Made by a program: the position numbers and the translations under genes
Shown: positions 2,609 through 14,187 of the stretch, in pieces
Position numbering within the stretch: the first letter of the stretch is position 1
Layout: each line of letters starts with the position of its first letter
DNA from: an uncultured Lachnospiraceae bacterium
GTDB taxonomy: Bacteria > Bacillota > Clostridia > Lachnospirales > Lachnospiraceae
Assembly (NCBI GenBank): GCA_944381745.1
Contig: CALWMI010000038.1
Location: 23,934-87,933, forward strand
Length of the DNA: 64,000 nucleotides
Reading direction: 5' to 3'
Notes under the pieces: model-generated
The model's input: the letters and a program-made list of their open reading frames with translations, nothing else
Databases searched by the model: none
Told to the model about the DNA's origin: nothing

Positions 2609-3451
2609 ATGGTCATTGGAAATCGGGTTTACGATACAGAAAATCACACCTATGTCATGGGAATCTTGAATGTCACGCCGGATTCCTTCTCGGACGGCGG
2701 ACGCTTTGGGACGGTGGACCGGGCGCTGTACCACGCCCAGGAGATGATAGGGGAGGGGGCGGACCTTCTGGATATCGGGGGAGAGTCCACCCGCCCCGGC
2801 TGCAGCCAGGTGTCTGCGGAAGAGGAGATGGAGCGGGTTCTGCCTGTGCTGGAGCAGGTCAAGGCAGAATTTGACATACCCGTGTCCGTGGACACGTACA
2901 AGCCCGAGGTGGCTGCGGCAGCCGCTGCGGCTGGCGCGGACATGATCAACGATGTGTGGGGGCTGAAATACGACGAGGCGATGGCCGATGTCATTGCCCG
3001 GTACCAGCTGCCCTGCTGCCTGATGCACAACCGCCGGGAGGCTGTCTACTACAATTATATGAAGGATCTGTTGAACGACCTGCAGGAGAGCGTGGCCATC
3101 GCCCTCCGGCACGGGATACGCCGGGGACAGATCATCCTGGATCCGGGGATTGGATTTGGGAAGACTTACGAGCACAGCCTGGAGGCGCTGCACAGGCTGG
3201 AGCGCCTGAAGGAGCTGGGATTTCCGGTCCTCCTGGGGGCTTCCAGGAAATCCGTCATAGGGCTGACGCTGGACGTCCCGGTGGAGGAGCGGCTGGAGGG
3301 AACCCTGGCCGCTACCGTGGCGGCGGTGATGAAGGGCTGTTCCTTTGTGCGGGTACACGATGTGCGGGCAAACAAGCGGGCCGTCCGGATGGCTGAGGCT
3401 ATCGGGGCTGGACGGCGTGTGGAGGAGAAGACATGGACAGAATTAAGATAA
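2609..3451 (+). CDS. folP: Dihydropteroate synthase
   Basis: MGILNVTPDSFSDGG, DIGGESTRPG, DPGIGFGK and GASRKS motifs; start moved to ATG 2609. Confidence 0.96.
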   Translation: MVIGNRVYDTENHTYVMGILNVTPDSFSDGGRFGTVDRALYHAQEMIGEGADLLDIGGESTRPGCSQVSAEEEMERVLPVLEQVKAEFDIPVSVDTYKPEVAAAAAAAGADMINDVWGLKYDEAMADVIARYQLPCCLMHNRREAVYYNYMKDLLNDLQESVAIALRHGIRRGQIILDPGIGFGKTYEHSLEALHRLERLKELGFPVLLGASRKSVIGLTLDVPVEERLEGTLAATVAAVMKGCSFVRVHDVRANKRAVRMAEAIGAGRRVEEKTWTELR

Positions 3452-7619: not shown

Positions 7620-8633
7620 ATGGGAGAGCGTCAGTGGACGGCTGTCCGCTGGGAGGGCACAGACCCAGCGGAAAATTTGGCCATGGAAGAGTATGCGTTT
7701 GACCGCCTGCCGCTGGACAGGGATTATGTGATCCTGTGGCAGTACCGCCCATCCGTCATCATCGGGAAGCACCAGAATGCCCTGGAGGAGATCAACGGGG
7801 AGTACGTGAGGAGGAAGCAGCTGCCTGTCGTCCGGAGACTGTCAGGCGGCGGGGCTGTCTACCACGACCTGGGGAACTTGAATTTTACCTTTCTGGCCAG
7901 GACGCAGGGATTCTCCGGGGAGTGGGCACAGATACTGGAACCGGTGCTTGGCGCCTGCCAGGCGCTGGGCGTCCGGGCATCCCTGAGCGGGAGGAACGAC
8001 CTGACCGGCCCGGACGGCAGGAAGTTTTCCGGTAATGCCCGCTATGAGCGGGATGGGCGCCTGATGCATCACGGCACCCTTCTCATCAGCGCAGACCTGG
8101 GAGCCATGGAGGAGGCCCTGCGGGTTTCCAGGGACAAGATGCGCTCAAGGGGCGTGGCGTCGGTGCGGGCCAGGGTAGGGAACCTGCGGGAATATGCGCC
8201 GGGGATAACGGTGGAGAGCTTTCGGGAAACCCTGTTGGAGGCGCTGTCCGGGGGAAGAGAACTGGAGAGCTGCTGCTGGAGCGCGCAGGATCGGAAGGAG
8301 ATCCGCAGGCGTGCAGAGGCACGGTACCGGCGCTGGGAGTGGAATTACGGCAATTTCCCCGCGTGCAGCATGGTAAGGGAGAGACGCATAGAGGGCTGCG
8401 GCCAGGTGAAGGTGGGCTTGGAGCTTCTGGCAGGCTGCGTGACAGAGTGCCATTTCCAGGGGGATTTTCTCGGCAGCGCCCCGGTGGAGCAGCTGGAAGG
8501 GCTGCTGGAGGGCTGCCGGCTGGAGGAGGCTGCCCTGAGGAAGCGGCTGGAGCAGGTTCCGGTGGATGACTATATCCGGGGGATGGATGCCGGGCTGCTG
8601 ACAGAGCTGCTGCTTGGCGGCATTGTACAGTGA
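7620..8633 (+). CDS. lplA: Lipoate-protein ligase A
   Basis: NLAMEEY, VIIGKHQN, RRLSGGGAVYHDLGN, GRNDL, KFSGNA and HHGTLL motifs. Confidence 0.93.
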   Translation: MGERQWTAVRWEGTDPAENLAMEEYAFDRLPLDRDYVILWQYRPSVIIGKHQNALEEINGEYVRRKQLPVVRRLSGGGAVYHDLGNLNFTFLARTQGFSGEWAQILEPVLGACQALGVRASLSGRNDLTGPDGRKFSGNARYERDGRLMHHGTLLISADLGAMEEALRVSRDKMRSRGVASVRARVGNLREYAPGITVESFRETLLEALSGGRELESCCWSAQDRKEIRRRAEARYRRWEWNYGNFPACSMVRERRIEGCGQVKVGLELLAGCVTECHFQGDFLGSAPVEQLEGLLEGCRLEEAALRKRLEQVPVDDYIRGMDAGLLTELLLGGIVQ

Positions 8634-8744
8634 TTTTGTAGCAGGATAAAGTGTATAAATTTACTGAGAATATATAAATAAACAAACAATTAGCTATATT
8701 TAGACAAAATACACAATTAAATTTAAAAATTTTTGAAAATAGTA

Positions 8745-8774
8745 TTGACAAAACAGCTTTCGATGAGCTATAAT
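8745..8774 (+). promoter_or_regulatory. Strong sigma-A promoter with an AT-rich UP-like tract upstream
   Basis: TTGACA 8745-8750, 18-nt spacer, TATAAT 8769-8774; very AT-rich 8655-8744. Confidence 0.85.
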
Positions 8775-8779
8775 CAAAC

Positions 8780-10334
8780 CATCAAAAGAAGAGGAACAAG
8801 AGCAAGGCTCACGAAGGAGCCGGGAGAAGGCAGAAGACCTTAACAGAATCTTTCCGAAACCGCTTATTTAAAATGAAGGAAATTCACAATTTTCGGAAAG
8901 CTGTCTTCAGAGGACAATGTTTCAAACAAATTCTTACGAGGAAAATTTTATCTCGCTTCACAATTGATCCGGCTGATGAGAAATTACCAATAGGGTCAGA
9001 GAAGACGGATAGAATCAGAGGTAAGGATGGAAGGTGGAACATAGAAGATGGCAGACCATCCAGAATGTTCGTGAATCAGAATTTTTAAAGACAGTGATGA
9101 CGGAACAGGAGTTCAGGAGCTAAGCCAGCAGCCAATTTAAAATGATGAAAATTTAAAATACCGGGCGGATAGTTTTTACCACTTGTTCAAGGATATTCCG
9201 GTTCAGAAAATTTTGGATCGCGCGAGCCGCAGCGGAGATGTCAATCACCACAAGGACGTGCAGGTACAGAATCAGGAGCAGGAGTTTGAGAGGAAGAAGA
9301 TAAGGCTGTCAAGCCAGACAGAGATGGTATTTTGAATCAGGATTTTTAAAGACCGCTAAGCAAGGCGAGGAGAGAACCCTGGAAAGCCACCAATTTAAAA
9401 TGATGAAAATTCAGAAATTCAGGTGATATGCTTTTTGGAAATCTTGCCAAGGATATCCCATTTCAGAAAATTTTAAAGGAGACTGGAAGATTTGGTTCGA
9501 CTGACCTGGAAGAGGTCAAAGAATTATTTCAAAGGTGGAATTTAGAATCGGGAAAAGGGGTTTGAGGTGGAGGAGGAAGAAGCAGTAAGCCAGCAAGAAT
9601 ATTCGTGAATCGAGAGTTTTAAAGACGGTGATGTTGAGGAGGAGGAAGTTGCTTCAGCAGTCCGTGACGAGAAAGCGGAGGAGAAGTTAAGAGGTGAGGG
9701 AGCCTTCCGGACACTCTGAGATCCCACAGGGGATCGGGTACCGATTCTGCAAGATATGAGGTGAGTCCCATGGACAGTCAAACAGAATTATTTCTCATCA
9801 GCTACTTCGGGATGTACGGAGTAATTGATGAGGTAGAGAAAGCCAATTCGTAATACGGAGAGACTTCAGGAGAATTGTAGGGAGCATAGCAGCGAGAGTG
9901 CTGCAGAGCTACACATTCATGAATTTGAAAGATAGTTGGGAAGTCCTTCTTCGTATTGATTAAGAAGAGGAACCATACAACTGAATATAGATGATGATGA
10001 CAGGTAAAGGCACGAGGTAGATATTCTTCCAAATAGAAAAACTAAGTAAAGGAAGGTACGGACCACCGAAAACATAAGTTTATAAAATTGGAAGACTAAG
10101 CAAAGGAAGGTATAGACCACCAAGAACGTAAGTTGAACTGAGACTGAATTTTATGCCGTGGCAGGAGAGGCTGTCAGGCAAGCGAAGAAAAGGAAGTCGA
10201 AATAATTTAAGTAAAGGAAGGTATAGACCACCGGAAATATAAATTCAGCATAGAATATTTACCGGAGTGCTTAGCAAACAAGATGTCATGAATACAAATA
10301 TTAGGGGAACACCGATGAGGCGTTCCCCTTTTTT
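8780..10334 (+). ncRNA. Candidate large structured non-coding RNA (or cluster of RNAs), family not recognised
   Basis: Bounded by a promoter and a terminator; no RBS-supported long ORF; many nested stems with GU pairs; internal repeats; strong purine bias on the + strand. Confidence 0.55.
10303..10334 (+). terminator. Rho-independent terminator
   Basis: AGGGGAAC (10303-10310) / GTTCCCCT (10322-10329) stem followed by a T run. Confidence 0.85.
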
Positions 10335-10432
10335 CTTGCCTTTTCCCCAATTGTAAAATTTTGAAAATCTATAGTGTTTTTCCAGCAAACATAGTAGAAT
10401 AGAGAAAAAGTATCCGAAGAAGAGGTGGAACG

Positions 10433-11971
10433 ATGCAGATTTTGACGTTTGCCGGAATAGATATTGGCTCCTATGAAGTGGGAATGAAGATTTTTGAGCT
10501 CTCAGCCAAGAATGGAATGAAGGAGATTACTTATATCAGGCACAGGATCGAGCTGGGGAAGGACGCTTATAATACAGGGAAGATCAGCGCCCAGCGGATG
10601 AATGAGCTGTGCGGGGTGCTGGCAGGATTCGTGGATATTATGCGGGAGTACCAGGTGGACGCCTACAGGGCCTGTGTCACAAGCGCGATCCGGGAGGCCG
10701 ACAATGGCCTCTTGGTGTTGGAGAATGTGCGCGTGAGGACGGGGATTGACGTGGAGGCCCTGAGCAACTCTGAGCAGCGGTTTCTGGGATACAAGTCCAT
10801 CGCCTACCAGGGGAAGCAGTTTGAGGAGATGATCCGCAAGGGAACCGCGATCTTTGACGTGGGCGGGGGGAGTATCCAGCTGTCGCTGTTCGACAAGGAT
10901 AAGCTGGTGACCACCCAGAATATCCGGATGGGGATCCTGCGTATCCGGGAGCGTATCGCTGCGATCGAGGACCGGCCGGAGCGCCAGGCTGAGCTGGTGG
11001 AGGAGCTGGTGGACAGTGAAATTGCCTCCTTCCGCAAGCTGTACCTGAAGGACCGGGATATCAAGAGCGTCATTTTTGTGGGGGACTACATCAACTATAT
11101 CGTCAAGACATTCAGGAAGGACGGAAGCCTTGTGGTGGCCCGGGAGGAGCTCCTTGCGCAGCTGGAGGCGTACTCCCGGATGAAGCCCGAGGAGACGGCC
11201 AGAAAGCTTGGCATCCCTGCGGACAACGCCTCTCTGATTCTTCCGTCGATGATCATCTACAAGCGGCTGGTGGAGATGACCAACGCGGAGGTGATCTGGG
11301 CGCCGGGGCGGAACCTGAGCGACGGGCTGGCCTATGATTACGGGGAGAGGCATAAACTTATCAAGACCTCCCACAACTTTGAGAACGATATCCTGGCGGC
11401 GGCGAAGAACATCTCCAAGAGATATCTGTCGGACAAAGCCCACATCAACCAGGTGGATGGGCTGGGGCTGCAGATACTGGATGCGATCAGGAAGGTGAGC
11501 GGGCTGGGGCCGAGAGACCGGCTGCTGTTCAGCATCGCCGTGCAGCTGCACCAGTGCGGGAAGTATATCACCGTATCCAAGGCGGCGGAGTGCAACTATG
11601 ATATTGTGATGGCCACGGAGATTATCGGGCTGTCCCACAAGGAGAGGAACCTGGTGGCCAATATTGTGCGCTATACAACGGAGGAATTTCCCACCTACGA
11701 GAAGCTGGCGGCCACGGAGGAGATCGAGGAGGACACCTATCTGCGCATCATGAAGCTGACCGCCGTATTCCGCGCGGCAAATGCGTTGGACCGCAGCCAT
11801 AGGCAGAAGATCAAGAATATGAAGGCAGTGTTGAAGGATTACAAGCTGCAGCTGAATATCAGCGACAATGTGGATTTGACGCTGGAGAAGGACGCGCTGG
11901 ACGACAAGGGGGATTTCTTTGAGTACGTGTTTGGGATACGCCCGGTCATCCGCCAGAAGAAGAAATTCTGA
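10433..11971 (+). CDS. ppx: Exopolyphosphatase, Ppx/GppA family
   Basis: GIDIGS, TSAIREA, EQRF and FDVGGGSIQLS ASKHA motifs plus an HD-like C-terminus; adjacent to ppk1. Confidence 0.9.
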   Translation: MQILTFAGIDIGSYEVGMKIFELSAKNGMKEITYIRHRIELGKDAYNTGKISAQRMNELCGVLAGFVDIMREYQVDAYRACVTSAIREADNGLLVLENVRVRTGIDVEALSNSEQRFLGYKSIAYQGKQFEEMIRKGTAIFDVGGGSIQLSLFDKDKLVTTQNIRMGILRIRERIAAIEDRPERQAELVEELVDSEIASFRKLYLKDRDIKSVIFVGDYINYIVKTFRKDGSLVVAREELLAQLEAYSRMKPEETARKLGIPADNASLILPSMIIYKRLVEMTNAEVIWAPGRNLSDGLAYDYGERHKLIKTSHNFENDILAAAKNISKRYLSDKAHINQVDGLGLQILDAIRKVSGLGPRDRLLFSIAVQLHQCGKYITVSKAAECNYDIVMATEIIGLSHKERNLVANIVRYTTEEFPTYEKLAATEEIEEDTYLRIMKLTAVFRAANALDRSHRQKIKNMKAVLKDYKLQLNISDNVDLTLEKDALDDKGDFFEYVFGIRPVIRQKKKF

Positions 11972-12018: not shown

Positions 12019-14187
12019 ATGGATTTTTTGAAACCGGAATATTACAGGAACAGGGAGCTGAGCTGGATTCAGTTCAATGAGCGGGTGCTAGGAGAGGCGA
12101 GGGATAAGACCCTGCTCTTGTTTGAGAGATTGAAGTTCCTGAGCATCACGGCGTCCAACCTGGATGAATTTTTCATGATCCGGGTAGCGTCCCTCAAGGA
12201 TATGGTAAACGCGAACTATATGAAGCCGGACATTGCCGGCATGACGCCGTCTATGCAGCTGGAGGAGATCAGCGGCAAGGTGCATGAGCTTGTGGGGGTG
12301 CAGTACTCCACCCTGATCCGCTCCCTGATCCCGGCGCTTAAGCAGAACGGGCTGATTTTTGTCAGGGAGCACGAGGAGCTGGGGGAAGAGGACGCGGCGT
12401 ATGTGGACCGCTATTTTGCGGAAAATGTGTATCCGGTGCTGACGCCTATGGCGGTGGATTCCTCCAGGCCCTTCCCGTTGGTGCGCAACAAGACGCTGAA
12501 TATCGGGGCGCTGGTGAAGCGCAAGCCGGAGAAGGCGGTGGGAAAAGCGGAGGACAGCGGGAAGGAAGGGCAGAAGGATGAGGTGGAGTTTGCCACGGTG
12601 CAGGTTCCGTCCGTGCTGCCGAGAATTGTGGAGCTTCCGCCGAAGAGCGACGGGACGCGGCAGGTGATCCTGCTGGAGGAGATTATCGAGCGCAACATCG
12701 CGAAGCTGTTCCTCAACTACGATGTGATCTGTGCCCATCCCTACCGGGTGATGCGCAACGCGGATCTTACCATCGATGAGGACGAGGCGGCCGATCTCCT
12801 CAAGGAGATCCAGAAGCAGCTGAAGAAGCGGCAGTGGGGGGAGGTCATCCGCCTGGAGGTGGAGGACTCGATGGATAAGCAGCTGTTCAAAATACTCAAG
12901 AGGGAGTTCAATGTGAAGGAGAGTGAGATCTACCGGATCAACGGGCCGCTGGATTTGACCTTCCTCATGAAGCTCTACGGCCTGGAGGGCTTTGAACAGC
13001 TGAAAGCGCCGAAGCACGTGCCGGCCCCGGTTCCCCAGATGATGGGCGAGGGGAGCATTTTCCGGAAGATCCGGGGAGGGGATATTCTGCTGCACCATCC
13101 CTACCAGAGCTTCGACCCGGTGGTGGATTTTGTCCGGGAAGCTGCGAAGGATCCGCAGGTGCTGGCAATCAAGCAGACGCTGTACCGGGTGAGCGGCAAC
13201 TCGCCGATCATCGCGGCCCTGGCGCAGGCGGCCGAGAACGGCAAGCAGGTCAGCGTCCTGGTGGAGCTGAAGGCCAGATTTGACGAGGAGAACAACATTG
13301 TGTGGGCGAAGATGCTGGAGAAGGCCGGGTGCCATGTCATTTACGGCCTGGTAGGGCTCAAGACCCACAGCAAGATCACCCTGGTGGTGCGCCGGGAGGA
13401 GGACGGCATACGCCGGTACGTCCACCTGGGCACGGGAAATTATAACGACGCCACGGCCAAGCAGTATACGGACTGCGGGCTTCTCACCTGTTCCCCGGCC
13501 ATGGGGGAGGACGCCACGGCTGTGTTCAACATGCTGTCCGGCTATTCTGAGCCGCTCACCTGGAATAAGCTGGTGCTGGCGCCGATCTGGCTGCGGGACC
13601 GCTTCCTGGAGCTGATCCGCCGGGAGAGGGACAATGCCCGCGTTGGCAAACCGGCGAAGATTGTGGCAAAGATGAATTCCCTGTGCGACCAGGAGATCAT
13701 CGCCGCCCTCTACGAGGCATCGGCGGCGGGAGTGGAGATCGACCTGATTATCCGCGGGATCTGCTGCCTGAAGGTGGGGATCCCTGGAGTCAGCGAGCAT
13801 ATCCGGGTGCGCTCGATTGTGGGCAATTTCCTGGAGCATGCGCGGATTTTCTATTTCCTGAACAATGGGCAGGAGGAGCTGTACATGGGGAGCGCGGACT
13901 GGATGCCCCGCAACCTGGATAAGCGGGTGGAAATCCTCTTCCCTGTGGAGGCCAAGGGGCCGAAGGAGGAGGGAAAACACATCCTGGAGATTCAGCTGGC
14001 GGATACGCTGAAGGCGCATGTGCTGCAGAAGGACGGCCTCTATGAGAAGGTGGACCGCAGGGGCAAGGAGCCTCTGTGCGCCCAGGAGTATTTTGCCGGG
14101 GAGGCCTGGGAGATGGCTGACGCGGCGCAGGAGGAGGAGACTCTCAACGACCGGGTGTTTGTGCCGGAGGAGCCGGTGGAAGAGTGA
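12019..14187 (+). CDS. ppk1: Polyphosphate kinase 1
   Basis: NRELSWIQFNERVL, NLDEFFMIRVA, HHPYQSF, ELKARFDE, KTHSK, HLGTGNYN and SADWMPRNL motifs. Confidence 0.97.
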   Translation: MDFLKPEYYRNRELSWIQFNERVLGEARDKTLLLFERLKFLSITASNLDEFFMIRVASLKDMVNANYMKPDIAGMTPSMQLEEISGKVHELVGVQYSTLIRSLIPALKQNGLIFVREHEELGEEDAAYVDRYFAENVYPVLTPMAVDSSRPFPLVRNKTLNIGALVKRKPEKAVGKAEDSGKEGQKDEVEFATVQVPSVLPRIVELPPKSDGTRQVILLEEIIERNIAKLFLNYDVICAHPYRVMRNADLTIDEDEAADLLKEIQKQLKKRQWGEVIRLEVEDSMDKQLFKILKREFNVKESEIYRINGPLDLTFLMKLYGLEGFEQLKAPKHVPAPVPQMMGEGSIFRKIRGGDILLHHPYQSFDPVVDFVREAAKDPQVLAIKQTLYRVSGNSPIIAALAQAAENGKQVSVLVELKARFDEENNIVWAKMLEKAGCHVIYGLVGLKTHSKITLVVRREEDGIRRYVHLGTGNYNDATAKQYTDCGLLTCSPAMGEDATAVFNMLSGYSEPLTWNKLVLAPIWLRDRFLELIRRERDNARVGKPAKIVAKMNSLCDQEIIAALYEASAAGVEIDLIIRGICCLKVGIPGVSEHIRVRSIVGNFLEHARIFYFLNNGQEELYMGSADWMPRNLDKRVEILFPVEAKGPKEEGKHILEIQLADTLKAHVLQKDGLYEKVDRRGKEPLCAQEYFAGEAWEMADAAQEEETLNDRVFVPEEPVEE

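Follow-up and report, generated by a model that had tools for sequence, protein, structure and literature searches.

An abundant modular RNA with a small open reading frame and Shine-Dalgarno look-alikes between lplA and ppx of an uncultured Lachnospiraceae bacterium

What kind of RNA is made from the 1.8-kb gap between lplA and ppx in a 64,000-nucleotide stretch of DNA from an uncultured Lachnospiraceae bacterium? An earlier note on this stretch (the window, taken at its full length, with positions counted from its first nucleotide) had proposed a single large and ornate RNA of purely noncoding character. We found that the gap gives rise to an abundant transcript, and that this transcript is an unusually large member, bearing a small open reading frame (sORF), of a new, widespread, and modular RNA family. 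As judged by sequence matches, the RNAs that carry its modules form an undescribed family that is absent from Rfam and present in nearly half of the Lachnospiraceae genera. Our literature searches returned no account of such module RNAs.

Transcript borders, abundance, and neighboring genes

The earlier note had predicted a consensus promoter at 8745/8769 with an AT-rich tract upstream, a terminator at 10303–10334, and a discrete, highly expressed transcript running from one to the other. The first two agree with the sequence and the third with RNA contigs from six metatranscriptomes. The RNA is delimited by the following features.

8640–8744, + strand: AT-rich upstream tract resembling an UP element; a similar A/T-rich tract lies ahead of the promoter in related loci
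8745–8774, + strand: sigma-70 promoter with TTGACA at 8745–8750, an 18-nt spacer, and TATAAT at 8769–8774 (12/12 consensus matches)
8781–10337, + strand: transcript of ~1.55 kb, with a probable 5' end at 8781–8794 and the 3' end at the terminator
10303–10335, + strand: intrinsic terminator with an 8-bp G+C-rich stem, an 11-nt loop, and a T-run

In six RNA runs from gut metatranscriptomes, contigs extended from 8793, 8794, 8797, or 8802 to 10283, 10289, 10292, or 10313 with a k-mer depth of 8 to 125, and lplA, ppx, and ppk had a depth of zero in the same runs. One more RNA run gave a contig from 8705 to 10237, which begins upstream of the promoter. Two DNA runs showed a flat depth of 4.2 and 3.1 over all 5.5 kb, and the RNA coverage pattern is therefore not an assembly artifact. 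The stretch is almost complete in most of the 24 public runs listed, and the majority of these are metatranscriptomes of chicken and other guts. In three runs, Illumina read-2 adapter letters abut the contig start at 8793–8797, and in one run adapter letters follow the contig end at 10289. The 5' end of the transfer-messenger RNA (tmRNA) in the same run is likewise abutted by the read-2 adapter, ~7 nt short of its true end. These adapter positions would fit a + strand RNA with its 5' end a few nucleotides upstream of 8793, and ~8781 is predicted from the −10 box.

The tmRNA of the same genome, which was assembled in three runs, also served as the yardstick of abundance.

Contig C38:15903–16247 (~8 kb upstream of the window start; locus L063, 1501–1848), minus strand: tmRNA gene with the tag AEDNHLAIAA (aragorn; RF00023, 166.8 bits)

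Relative to tmRNA, the depth of the RNA ranged from 0.2× (runs X3 and X11) to 1.3× (run X7); in run X20 its depth was 125 and tmRNA was not assembled. With contig depth as a rough measure, these values, which differ from tmRNA by no more than about five-fold, make the RNA one of the abundant stable RNAs of the cell.

The borders are also conserved in the genus, for which we compared the genome of the window (G000) with G001, the complete genome G002, and G003. The promoter block AATAGTATTGACAAA...TATAATCAAATCATCAAAAG is kept in all four. The terminator reads AGGGGAAC...GTTCCCCT at 10303–10329, followed by TTTTTT, and its stem covaries among the genus members in the four-genome alignment. On the + strand, the terminator was overlooked by the automatic scan solely because of its 11-nt loop and is clear by eye. 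Automatic promoter calling, which allowed three mismatches, misplaced the starts of the four long RNAs of the genus; the 12/12 promoter and the RNA contigs were used instead.

The RNA sequence is single-copy in its own genome, and the gap stands out by a G+C content of 36–48% versus ~60% in the flanking DNA. The strong A/G bias that had been reported for the transcribed strand exists but is modest (62% purine versus 58% in the flanking coding strand), and the depletion of C to 15% is the clearer composition feature. Neither strand of 8634–10432 has an open reading frame (ORF) of at least 80 aa. The claim that there is no long ORF with a ribosome-binding site (RBS) thus stands for long ORFs; it overlooked a 27-codon ORF at 9770–9853 with GAGGTGA 5 nt upstream.

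The genes that flank the RNA are as follows.

7620–8633: lplA (LplA-B_cat domain, Pfam)
10433–11971, + strand: ppx (Ppx-GppA domain, PF02541, Pfam)
12019–14187, + strand: ppk1 (PP_kinase domain, Pfam)

An RNA at this site could act in cis on the ppx–ppk1 operon downstream, as its leader or attenuator. The operon has the same orientation, and the synteny of ppx is kept in three or more of the four genus members. However, the RNA ends in a strong terminator, no RNA contig of the six runs extends downstream past 10313, ppx and ppk are at zero depth in those runs, and other genera have a different, often convergent, downstream gene, so that we regard this role as extremely improbable. A type III toxin–antitoxin system of the ToxI-like kind, which would have tandem repeats of ~36–45 nt and a terminator with a ToxN/AbiQ-type toxin gene right behind it, was likewise rejected, as ppx and then ppk1 follow downstream and the neighbors vary among genera. 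Neighboring genes and their orientations differ from genus to genus without any universal neighbor, which argues that the RNA is a stand-alone gene.

Some neighbors recur. An aspartate-kinase gene (AA_kinase and ACT) lies upstream in three genera (L021 and L042 by Pfam, L022 by sequence similarity only), and two genera have a convergent radical-SAM gene on the downstream side (L029 by Pfam, L034 by sequence similarity only). In G001 (locus L002, reverse-complement ~3090–3220), ppx is not the first thing after the homologous terminator; the DNA there is a G+C-rich, apparently structured stretch (GTGGTGAAAGTCCAAAAGGGGCGTAGTTGCCGACGAACCCCACAGCG...) up to the contig end.

Modules shared with other genera

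The part of the RNA that links it to other genera is a module of ~40 nt, present here in three copies between the sORF and the terminator and accompanied by a short conserved box.

9977–9987, + strand: conserved box ACAACTGAATA, invariant in 4/4 genus members and unique in this genome
10042–10081, + strand: module A1, CTAAGTAAAGGAAGGTACGGACCACCGAAAACATAAGTTT, a look-alike of a Shine-Dalgarno (SD) sequence without a start codon (model R1, 42 bits, E = 8e-12)
10096–10134, + strand: module A2 (R1, 36.3 bits)
10207–10245, + strand: module A3, the copy kept in 4/4 genus members and a near-invariant block in the genus alignment (R1, 39.1 bits)

The consensus of the window copies is nCUAAGnAAAGGAAGGUAYRGACCACCRRAAAYNUAAGUU. 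R1, a sequence-only model built from 21 module copies, found matches in 185 of 401 genera of Lachnospiraceae, with 1–8 copies per genome, and in 10 of ~290 other Clostridia genomes, which belong to five families. The modules are the only part of the RNA that is conserved outside the genus, and the last of them is the best-conserved block within it. In its own genome, the module motif occurs at this locus only.

Sixty aligned module copies split into two classes. Class A, AGGUAYRGWCC-ACC-RRAAAC-UAAGUU, has no start codon, and class B, AGGUAYRGWCC-N(A/U)UGG, is followed by an ORF of 2–9 codons. In other genera, the modules sit in units of 180–560 nt that consist of an UP-like tract, a near-consensus promoter (TTGACA-17-TATAAT), an A-rich leader, a purine-rich body, and a terminator. 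A class A module mostly lies 20–60 nt from the start, followed by the variable purine-rich body and often by a class B module whose stop codon is a few nucleotides from the terminator stem. This layout is shared by ~30 loci of other genera. We counted as a module RNA any stand-alone unit of promoter, purine-rich body, and terminator with at least one AGGUAYRGWCC module (R1 E < 1e-5); the window RNA has three R1 matches of 36–42 bits, the promoter and terminator, 62% purine, and the shared ACTGAATA box. Within the 9977–9987 box, AACTGAATA recurs in module RNAs of other genera (L006, L019, and L042).

The window RNA has no SD and AUG/AUU mini-ORF at its terminator, which is a feature of at least 10 genera, and its only SD and AUG unit is the sORF, 450 nt upstream. 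In the genera that have such mini-ORFs, their nucleotide sequence is conserved even where AUG is replaced by AUU or an early stop intervenes, which points to selection on the RNA rather than on a peptide.

The mini-ORFs and their surroundings show further regularities. In loci L017, L034, L039, L041, and L042, the class B modules often read CCAUUGG for CCAAUGG, and the AUAGUUUAG letters that follow are still conserved; UCCAWUGGA is a 9-nt palindrome. The last SD and AUG/AUU mini-ORF has 5–9 codons in L003, L004, L022, L025–L028, L037, L059, and L062 (e.g., MDNVV, MDEIV, MIEESK, and MLDIKSEQK). In at least 10 genera, its stop either falls inside the 5' arm of the terminator hairpin or is no more than ~8 nt away from this arm, so that a ribosome terminating there would be positioned on the stem of the terminator. 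That stem (GGGTATCGA...TCGATACCC) is conserved and covaries across genera. Runs X6, X7, X13, and X20 also hold contigs of foreign organisms that share only the 34–40-nt module (window 10048–10081), at depths of 240–1900, which exceed the depth of this genome's tmRNA; one such contig continues as GATTTACCAGATTTTTTAAGAAAGAGGTAA, matching the L023/L040 type of module RNA.

Repeats, local hairpins, and the small open reading frame

Upstream of the modules lies most of the length of the RNA, which had prompted the comparison with large ornate RNAs. The elements found there and around the sORF are listed below.

8781–9700, + strand: ~3.5 degenerate tandem repeats of ~265 nt (units ~8781–9055, 9056–9325, 9326–9589, and 9590–9700; repeat search families D2, D3, D5, and D6)
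8806–8821, + strand: small hairpin GGCTC/GAGCC (S1), 5/5 pairs, kept in G001 via one compensatory C-G to U-A change
9758–9764, + strand: RBS of the sORF, GAGGTGA, 5 nt ahead of the ATG
9770–9853, + strand: sORF of 27 codons and TAA in a conserved open frame, peptide MDSQTELFLISYFGMYGVIDEVEKANS
9795–9831, + strand: hairpin of 14–16 pairs within the sORF, 14/16 pairs in G000 and 15/16 in G001
9889–9904, + strand: small hairpin GCAGC/GCTGC, which reads GCAGT...ACTGT in G001, a compensatory C-G to U-A change (by eye)

Several observations speak for one large, ornate, structured noncoding RNA, longer than OLE, ROOL, or GOLLD, that would act as a scaffold or a ribozyme-like machine. The RNA is abundant and has neither a long ORF nor an Rfam match. 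Its folding energy lies below that of shuffled sequences, with z = −3.1 for 8781–9760 (20 shuffles) and z = −3.8 for 9740–10334 (100 shuffles). The stems described in the earlier note are all present at the positions given there, and several local hairpins (S1, GATCCC/GGGATC (S4) at 9720–9735, and those at 9795–9831 and 9889–9904) are kept or compensated in G001. In the hairpin at 9795–9831, all five G001 changes keep or gain pairing, and by hand count it is fully paired in G002 and G003 too.

However, the size of the RNA does not reflect a conserved architecture. Among 60 relatives, G001 carries a full-length homolog of 80% identity, and G002 and G003 have at the same site, upstream of ppx, a unit of ~0.8–1.0 kb without the ~265-nt repeats. 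The repeats (z = 6–23 in unit-versus-unit local alignment) make up the first ~0.95 kb of the RNA, about two thirds of its length, and occur only in G000 and G001, which indicates that the large size is a recent expansion. Moreover, the long nested stems lose pairs in G001 without compensation: S2 (8826/8908) keeps 5/8, S3 (8850/8900) 7/10, and S6 (9862/9945) 4/6. The four-genome alignment keeps the promoter block, the sORF, the 11-nt box, one to three copies of the ~40-nt module, and the covarying terminator, and the remainder diverges freely within the genus. A coding sORF also lies in the middle of the RNA. The comparison with OLE, ROOL, and GOLLD is therefore not supported: the length derives from lineage-specific repeats, the homologs other than that of G001 are far shorter, and of the proposed stems the local ones persist, the long nested ones decay, and the 15-bp hairpin sits within the sORF. 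Overall, the evidence favors a string of local elements and repeats over a conserved large architecture, and we consider the single ornate machine very improbable.

In each repeat unit, the block CCAATTTAAAATGATGAAAATT, which includes an AUGAUGA similar to a C box, is highly conserved (window 9127–9158 and 9385–9416), and there are further blocks TGAATCAGRATTTTTAAAGAC and CAAGGATATYCC..TTCAGAAAATTT; all of these are also kept in G001. The idea that the repeats are decayed copies of the sORF unit was rejected, as their similarity has a z of about 1.

Covariance-model searches agreed with the earlier failure to recognize a known type of RNA, and they covered OLE, ROOL, GOLLD, HEARO, and raiA as well. 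Rfam 15 gave no match at gathering score in the 64-kb window, only chance-level snoRNA/miRNA matches of ≤20 bits at E up to 10 in 8500–10500, and nothing credible in 13 related loci. The large RNAs named above resemble the window RNA in being large, abundant, nonribosomal, and found in Firmicutes or metagenomes, but differ from it in that it has no covariance-model match at E up to 10 and no conserved long-range architecture. A decayed protein gene was rejected as well, since the four longest small ORFs have no Pfam match; a 71-aa ORF found no homolog but itself among 5.8 billion proteins.

The view of the RNA as purely noncoding was contradicted by the sORF. Its RBS, ATG, and an open frame of 27–37 codons are kept in all four genus members, the peptide has the invariant core L-ISYFG-Y-V-DE, and substitutions fall mostly on third codon positions (e.g., 3/2/11 and 4/1/10), including a synonymous change of a Leu codon from TTA to CTT. 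This pattern suggests that the sORF is under coding-type constraint and is translated, and coding and structural constraints probably coexist in it. The start region GGTGA(G/T)TCC(N)ATGG is conserved in the four genomes and is similar to the start modules of class B in other genera. The peptide belongs to no Pfam or NCBIfam family, and a profile hidden Markov model of the sORF gave nothing convincing outside the genus, with chance-level matches only in 400 other genera. The genus-specific peptide of 27–37 aa is thus a new small-protein candidate.

The RNA might then be simply the mRNA of this LISYFG peptide with an exceptionally long leader and trailer. The modules would in that case only stabilize it or be relics, and its sole function would be the peptide. 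The RBS, conserved frame, and coding-type substitutions fit this explanation, and in G002 and G003 60–90 nt separate the transcript start from the sORF, as would be normal for a small gene. Yet the sORF is confined to one genus, whereas RNAs of ~185 genera that lack such an ORF have the same modules, type of promoter, ACTGAATA box, and arrangement of the terminator. The relatives have mini-ORFs of 2–9 codons in which nucleotides rather than the peptide are conserved, and the best-conserved block within the genus is the last module, not the sORF. A role as a small-protein mRNA alone is thus possible, though unlikely in our estimate.

An sORF under purifying selection within an RNA is the mark of a dual-function small RNA (sRNA), and the codon-position bias together with the conserved frame, start, and RBS suggests that the window RNA carries one. 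It shares this combination of a conserved small ORF and conserved noncoding parts with RNAs such as SR1/SR1P, SgrS/SgrT, and RNAIII/hld; it differs from them in being far longer (1.55 kb) and in that its noncoding part consists of RBS look-alikes.

Docking of 30S subunits as a proposed function

What, then, might the modules do? Their letters point to the 3' end of 16S rRNA rather than to a fold of their own. RNAalifold keeps only two G-C pairs as a conserved module fold, and the minimum free energy of a single module is ~−2.6 kcal/mol, compared with −12 to −16 (up to −20.6) for its duplex with the 16S tail. Two candidate stems were tried and rejected: in a GGU/ACC hairpin, the third pair is broken without compensation in ~10/60 copies (W = U), and in an outer CUAAG/CUUAAG stem, cognate flanks perform no better than swapped flanks (p = 0.09). 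In the 16S 3' tail, ACCUCCUUU is the complement of AAAGGA(A)GGU, and RNAduplex extends the pairing with module GWCC against GG(A)UC of the tail. The tail itself, GGAUCACCUCCUUUCU, was confirmed in 4–6 copies in four complete genomes, one of them from this genus. The predicted duplex reaches −11.9 kcal/mol for the window copies, with a family median of −15.7. The ACCACCGAAAAC stretch after the SD core contains no ATG, GTG, or TTG by eye; the modules thus appear to be SD-like and 16S-complementary without a start codon at initiation distance, as in a STAB-SD element.

A STAB-SD element binds the 30S subunit without initiating and blocks RNase J1 (PMC4113751), and the strong SD of the Bacillus subtilis hbs mRNA is a further precedent (PMC5737220). 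We propose the following explanation. A strongly promoted stand-alone gene yields an abundant ~1.55-kb modular RNA, which is not one big fold but a lineage-specific, repeat-expanded member of an undescribed family whose purine-rich RNAs run from promoter to terminator and occur in Lachnospiraceae and in some other Clostridia. It would have two working parts. The first would be the translated sORF of 27 codons (27–37 in congeners), which has a start region of the SD and AUG type found in the family; the second would be one to three modules of the kind SD without start codon (AAAGGARGGUAYRGWCCACC) between the sORF and the terminator. The modules may pair with the single-stranded GGAUCACCUCCUUUCU tail and dock 30S subunits that are unable to initiate, and the docked subunits would shield the RNA from RNase J/Y-type decay, as in STAB-SD, and so contribute to its high abundance. 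Because the RNA is so abundant, 30S subunits may also be tied up. We chose 30S docking since the subunit is the one partner present in every carrier and since STAB-SD provides a precedent. In our judgment, the case for a dual-function stand-alone RNA that is stabilized by 30S docking, and that possibly ties up subunits, is evenly balanced.

Several points weigh against this proposal. STAB-SD elements lie at the 5' end, but the window modules are ~1.26–1.44 kb from the start and 3' of the sORF; modules near the 3' end therefore cannot shield the 1.2 kb ahead of them against an exonuclease that attacks from the 5' end. The window copies (GGAAGG, with one bulged A) have ordinary SD strength, −11.9 against a control median of −12.1 kcal/mol, although the control was deliberately generous. 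The third-position pattern of the sORF is partly confounded by the hairpin within it, and the contig depth behind the abundance estimate is a poor measure of expression. Finally, SD pairing does not fully account for why the spacer UAYRGWCC and CCACC are conserved, and a protein could read the motif. A "super-SD" was rejected for the window copies, as −11.9 kcal/mol is within the range of ordinary genes; the GGAGG copies of the family are stronger.

The last of these points leads to a different explanation, in which the RNA is a sponge or decoy of CsrB/RsmZ-like design for an RNA-binding protein, neither CsrA nor Hfq, that reads AGGUAYRGWCC(ACC) as a mimic of target start regions. The repetition of near-identical modules in an abundant RNA, the spacer and CCACC letters conserved beyond the needs of SD pairing, and the mostly single-stranded state of the modules would suit such a protein. 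On the other hand, no candidate protein is at hand, no neighboring gene is conserved, and the motif occurs nowhere else in the genome, so that there are no target mRNAs carrying it. We therefore hold a protein sponge to be distinctly unlikely.

The two best-known partners of such RNAs were excluded. CsrA (PF02599) was found neither in G000–G003, including the complete G002, nor in 9 of 12 module-bearing genomes, and Hfq (PF17209) in none of the 12 genomes tested, with positive controls detected in both searches. Since CsrA is absent from the genus and Hfq from 12/12 genomes, neither is the partner. The CsrA-sponge role that the earlier note had considered is thereby refuted for the genus, with csrA in 0/4 genomes. 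Its hand count of about 60 GGA trinucleotides, a modest excess, proved accurate (61 versus an expected 49 ± 6, z = 1.8). As for GGA in hairpin loops, the loop letters of the module (AYRG/AYAA) vary, GGA is not conserved there, and no conserved hairpin is predicted.

Compared with known systems, the window RNA is closest to STAB-SD in mechanism, to CsrB-type sponges in design, and to dual-function sRNAs in gene type, and it is a member of none. Like the STAB-SD elements of B. thuringiensis cry3A and B. subtilis hbs, the modules are noninitiating SDs complementary to the 16S 3' end, and in most other genera the first one lies 20–60 nt from the transcript start. A STAB-SD, however, occurs once, in the leader of an mRNA that encodes a protein. 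The modules are instead repeated, with a conserved spacer and a CCACC tail, and form stand-alone RNAs; in the window RNA, their place is near the 3' end. With the CsrB/RsmZ sponges, the RNA shares its abundance, its stand-alone nature, and many copies of a short SD-like motif in lineage-dependent number; however, the genus has no csrA, and the motif does not correspond to a hairpin-loop GGA. Minigenes, or start-stop sites, are ORFs of two to a few codons that capture ribosomes. The relatives in other genera are similar to them in carrying 2–9-codon ORFs behind strong SDs, often ending near the terminator stem, whereas the window RNA has a 27-codon ORF and three modules without a start codon.

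Lachnospiraceae are dominant gut anaerobes whose RNA biology is almost unstudied, and a 2026 review of the sRNAs of gut commensals mentions neither Lachnospiraceae nor Clostridia. In this bacterium, one of the most abundant nonribosomal transcripts turns out to belong to a family that reaches nearly half of the Lachnospiraceae genera and has no entry in Rfam. Annotation is likely to miss such loci or to mistake them for "giant ncRNAs" (noncoding RNAs), and the R1 alignment is a seed for a family model. The defining element of the family is a ribosome-binding site without a gene, which raises the question of whether stand-alone RNAs dock 30S subunits for the sake of RNA stability or for the control of translation capacity. 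A broader form of the docking proposal, which we consider rather unlikely, is a Clostridia-wide class of ribosome-docking RNAs in which the modules would hold free 30S subunits, and the mini-ORFs or the sORF would couple the fate of the RNA to translation, thereby setting the initiation-competent pool. If true, this class would give bacteria without CsrA and Hfq a sponge or parking device for ribosomes that is made of RNA.

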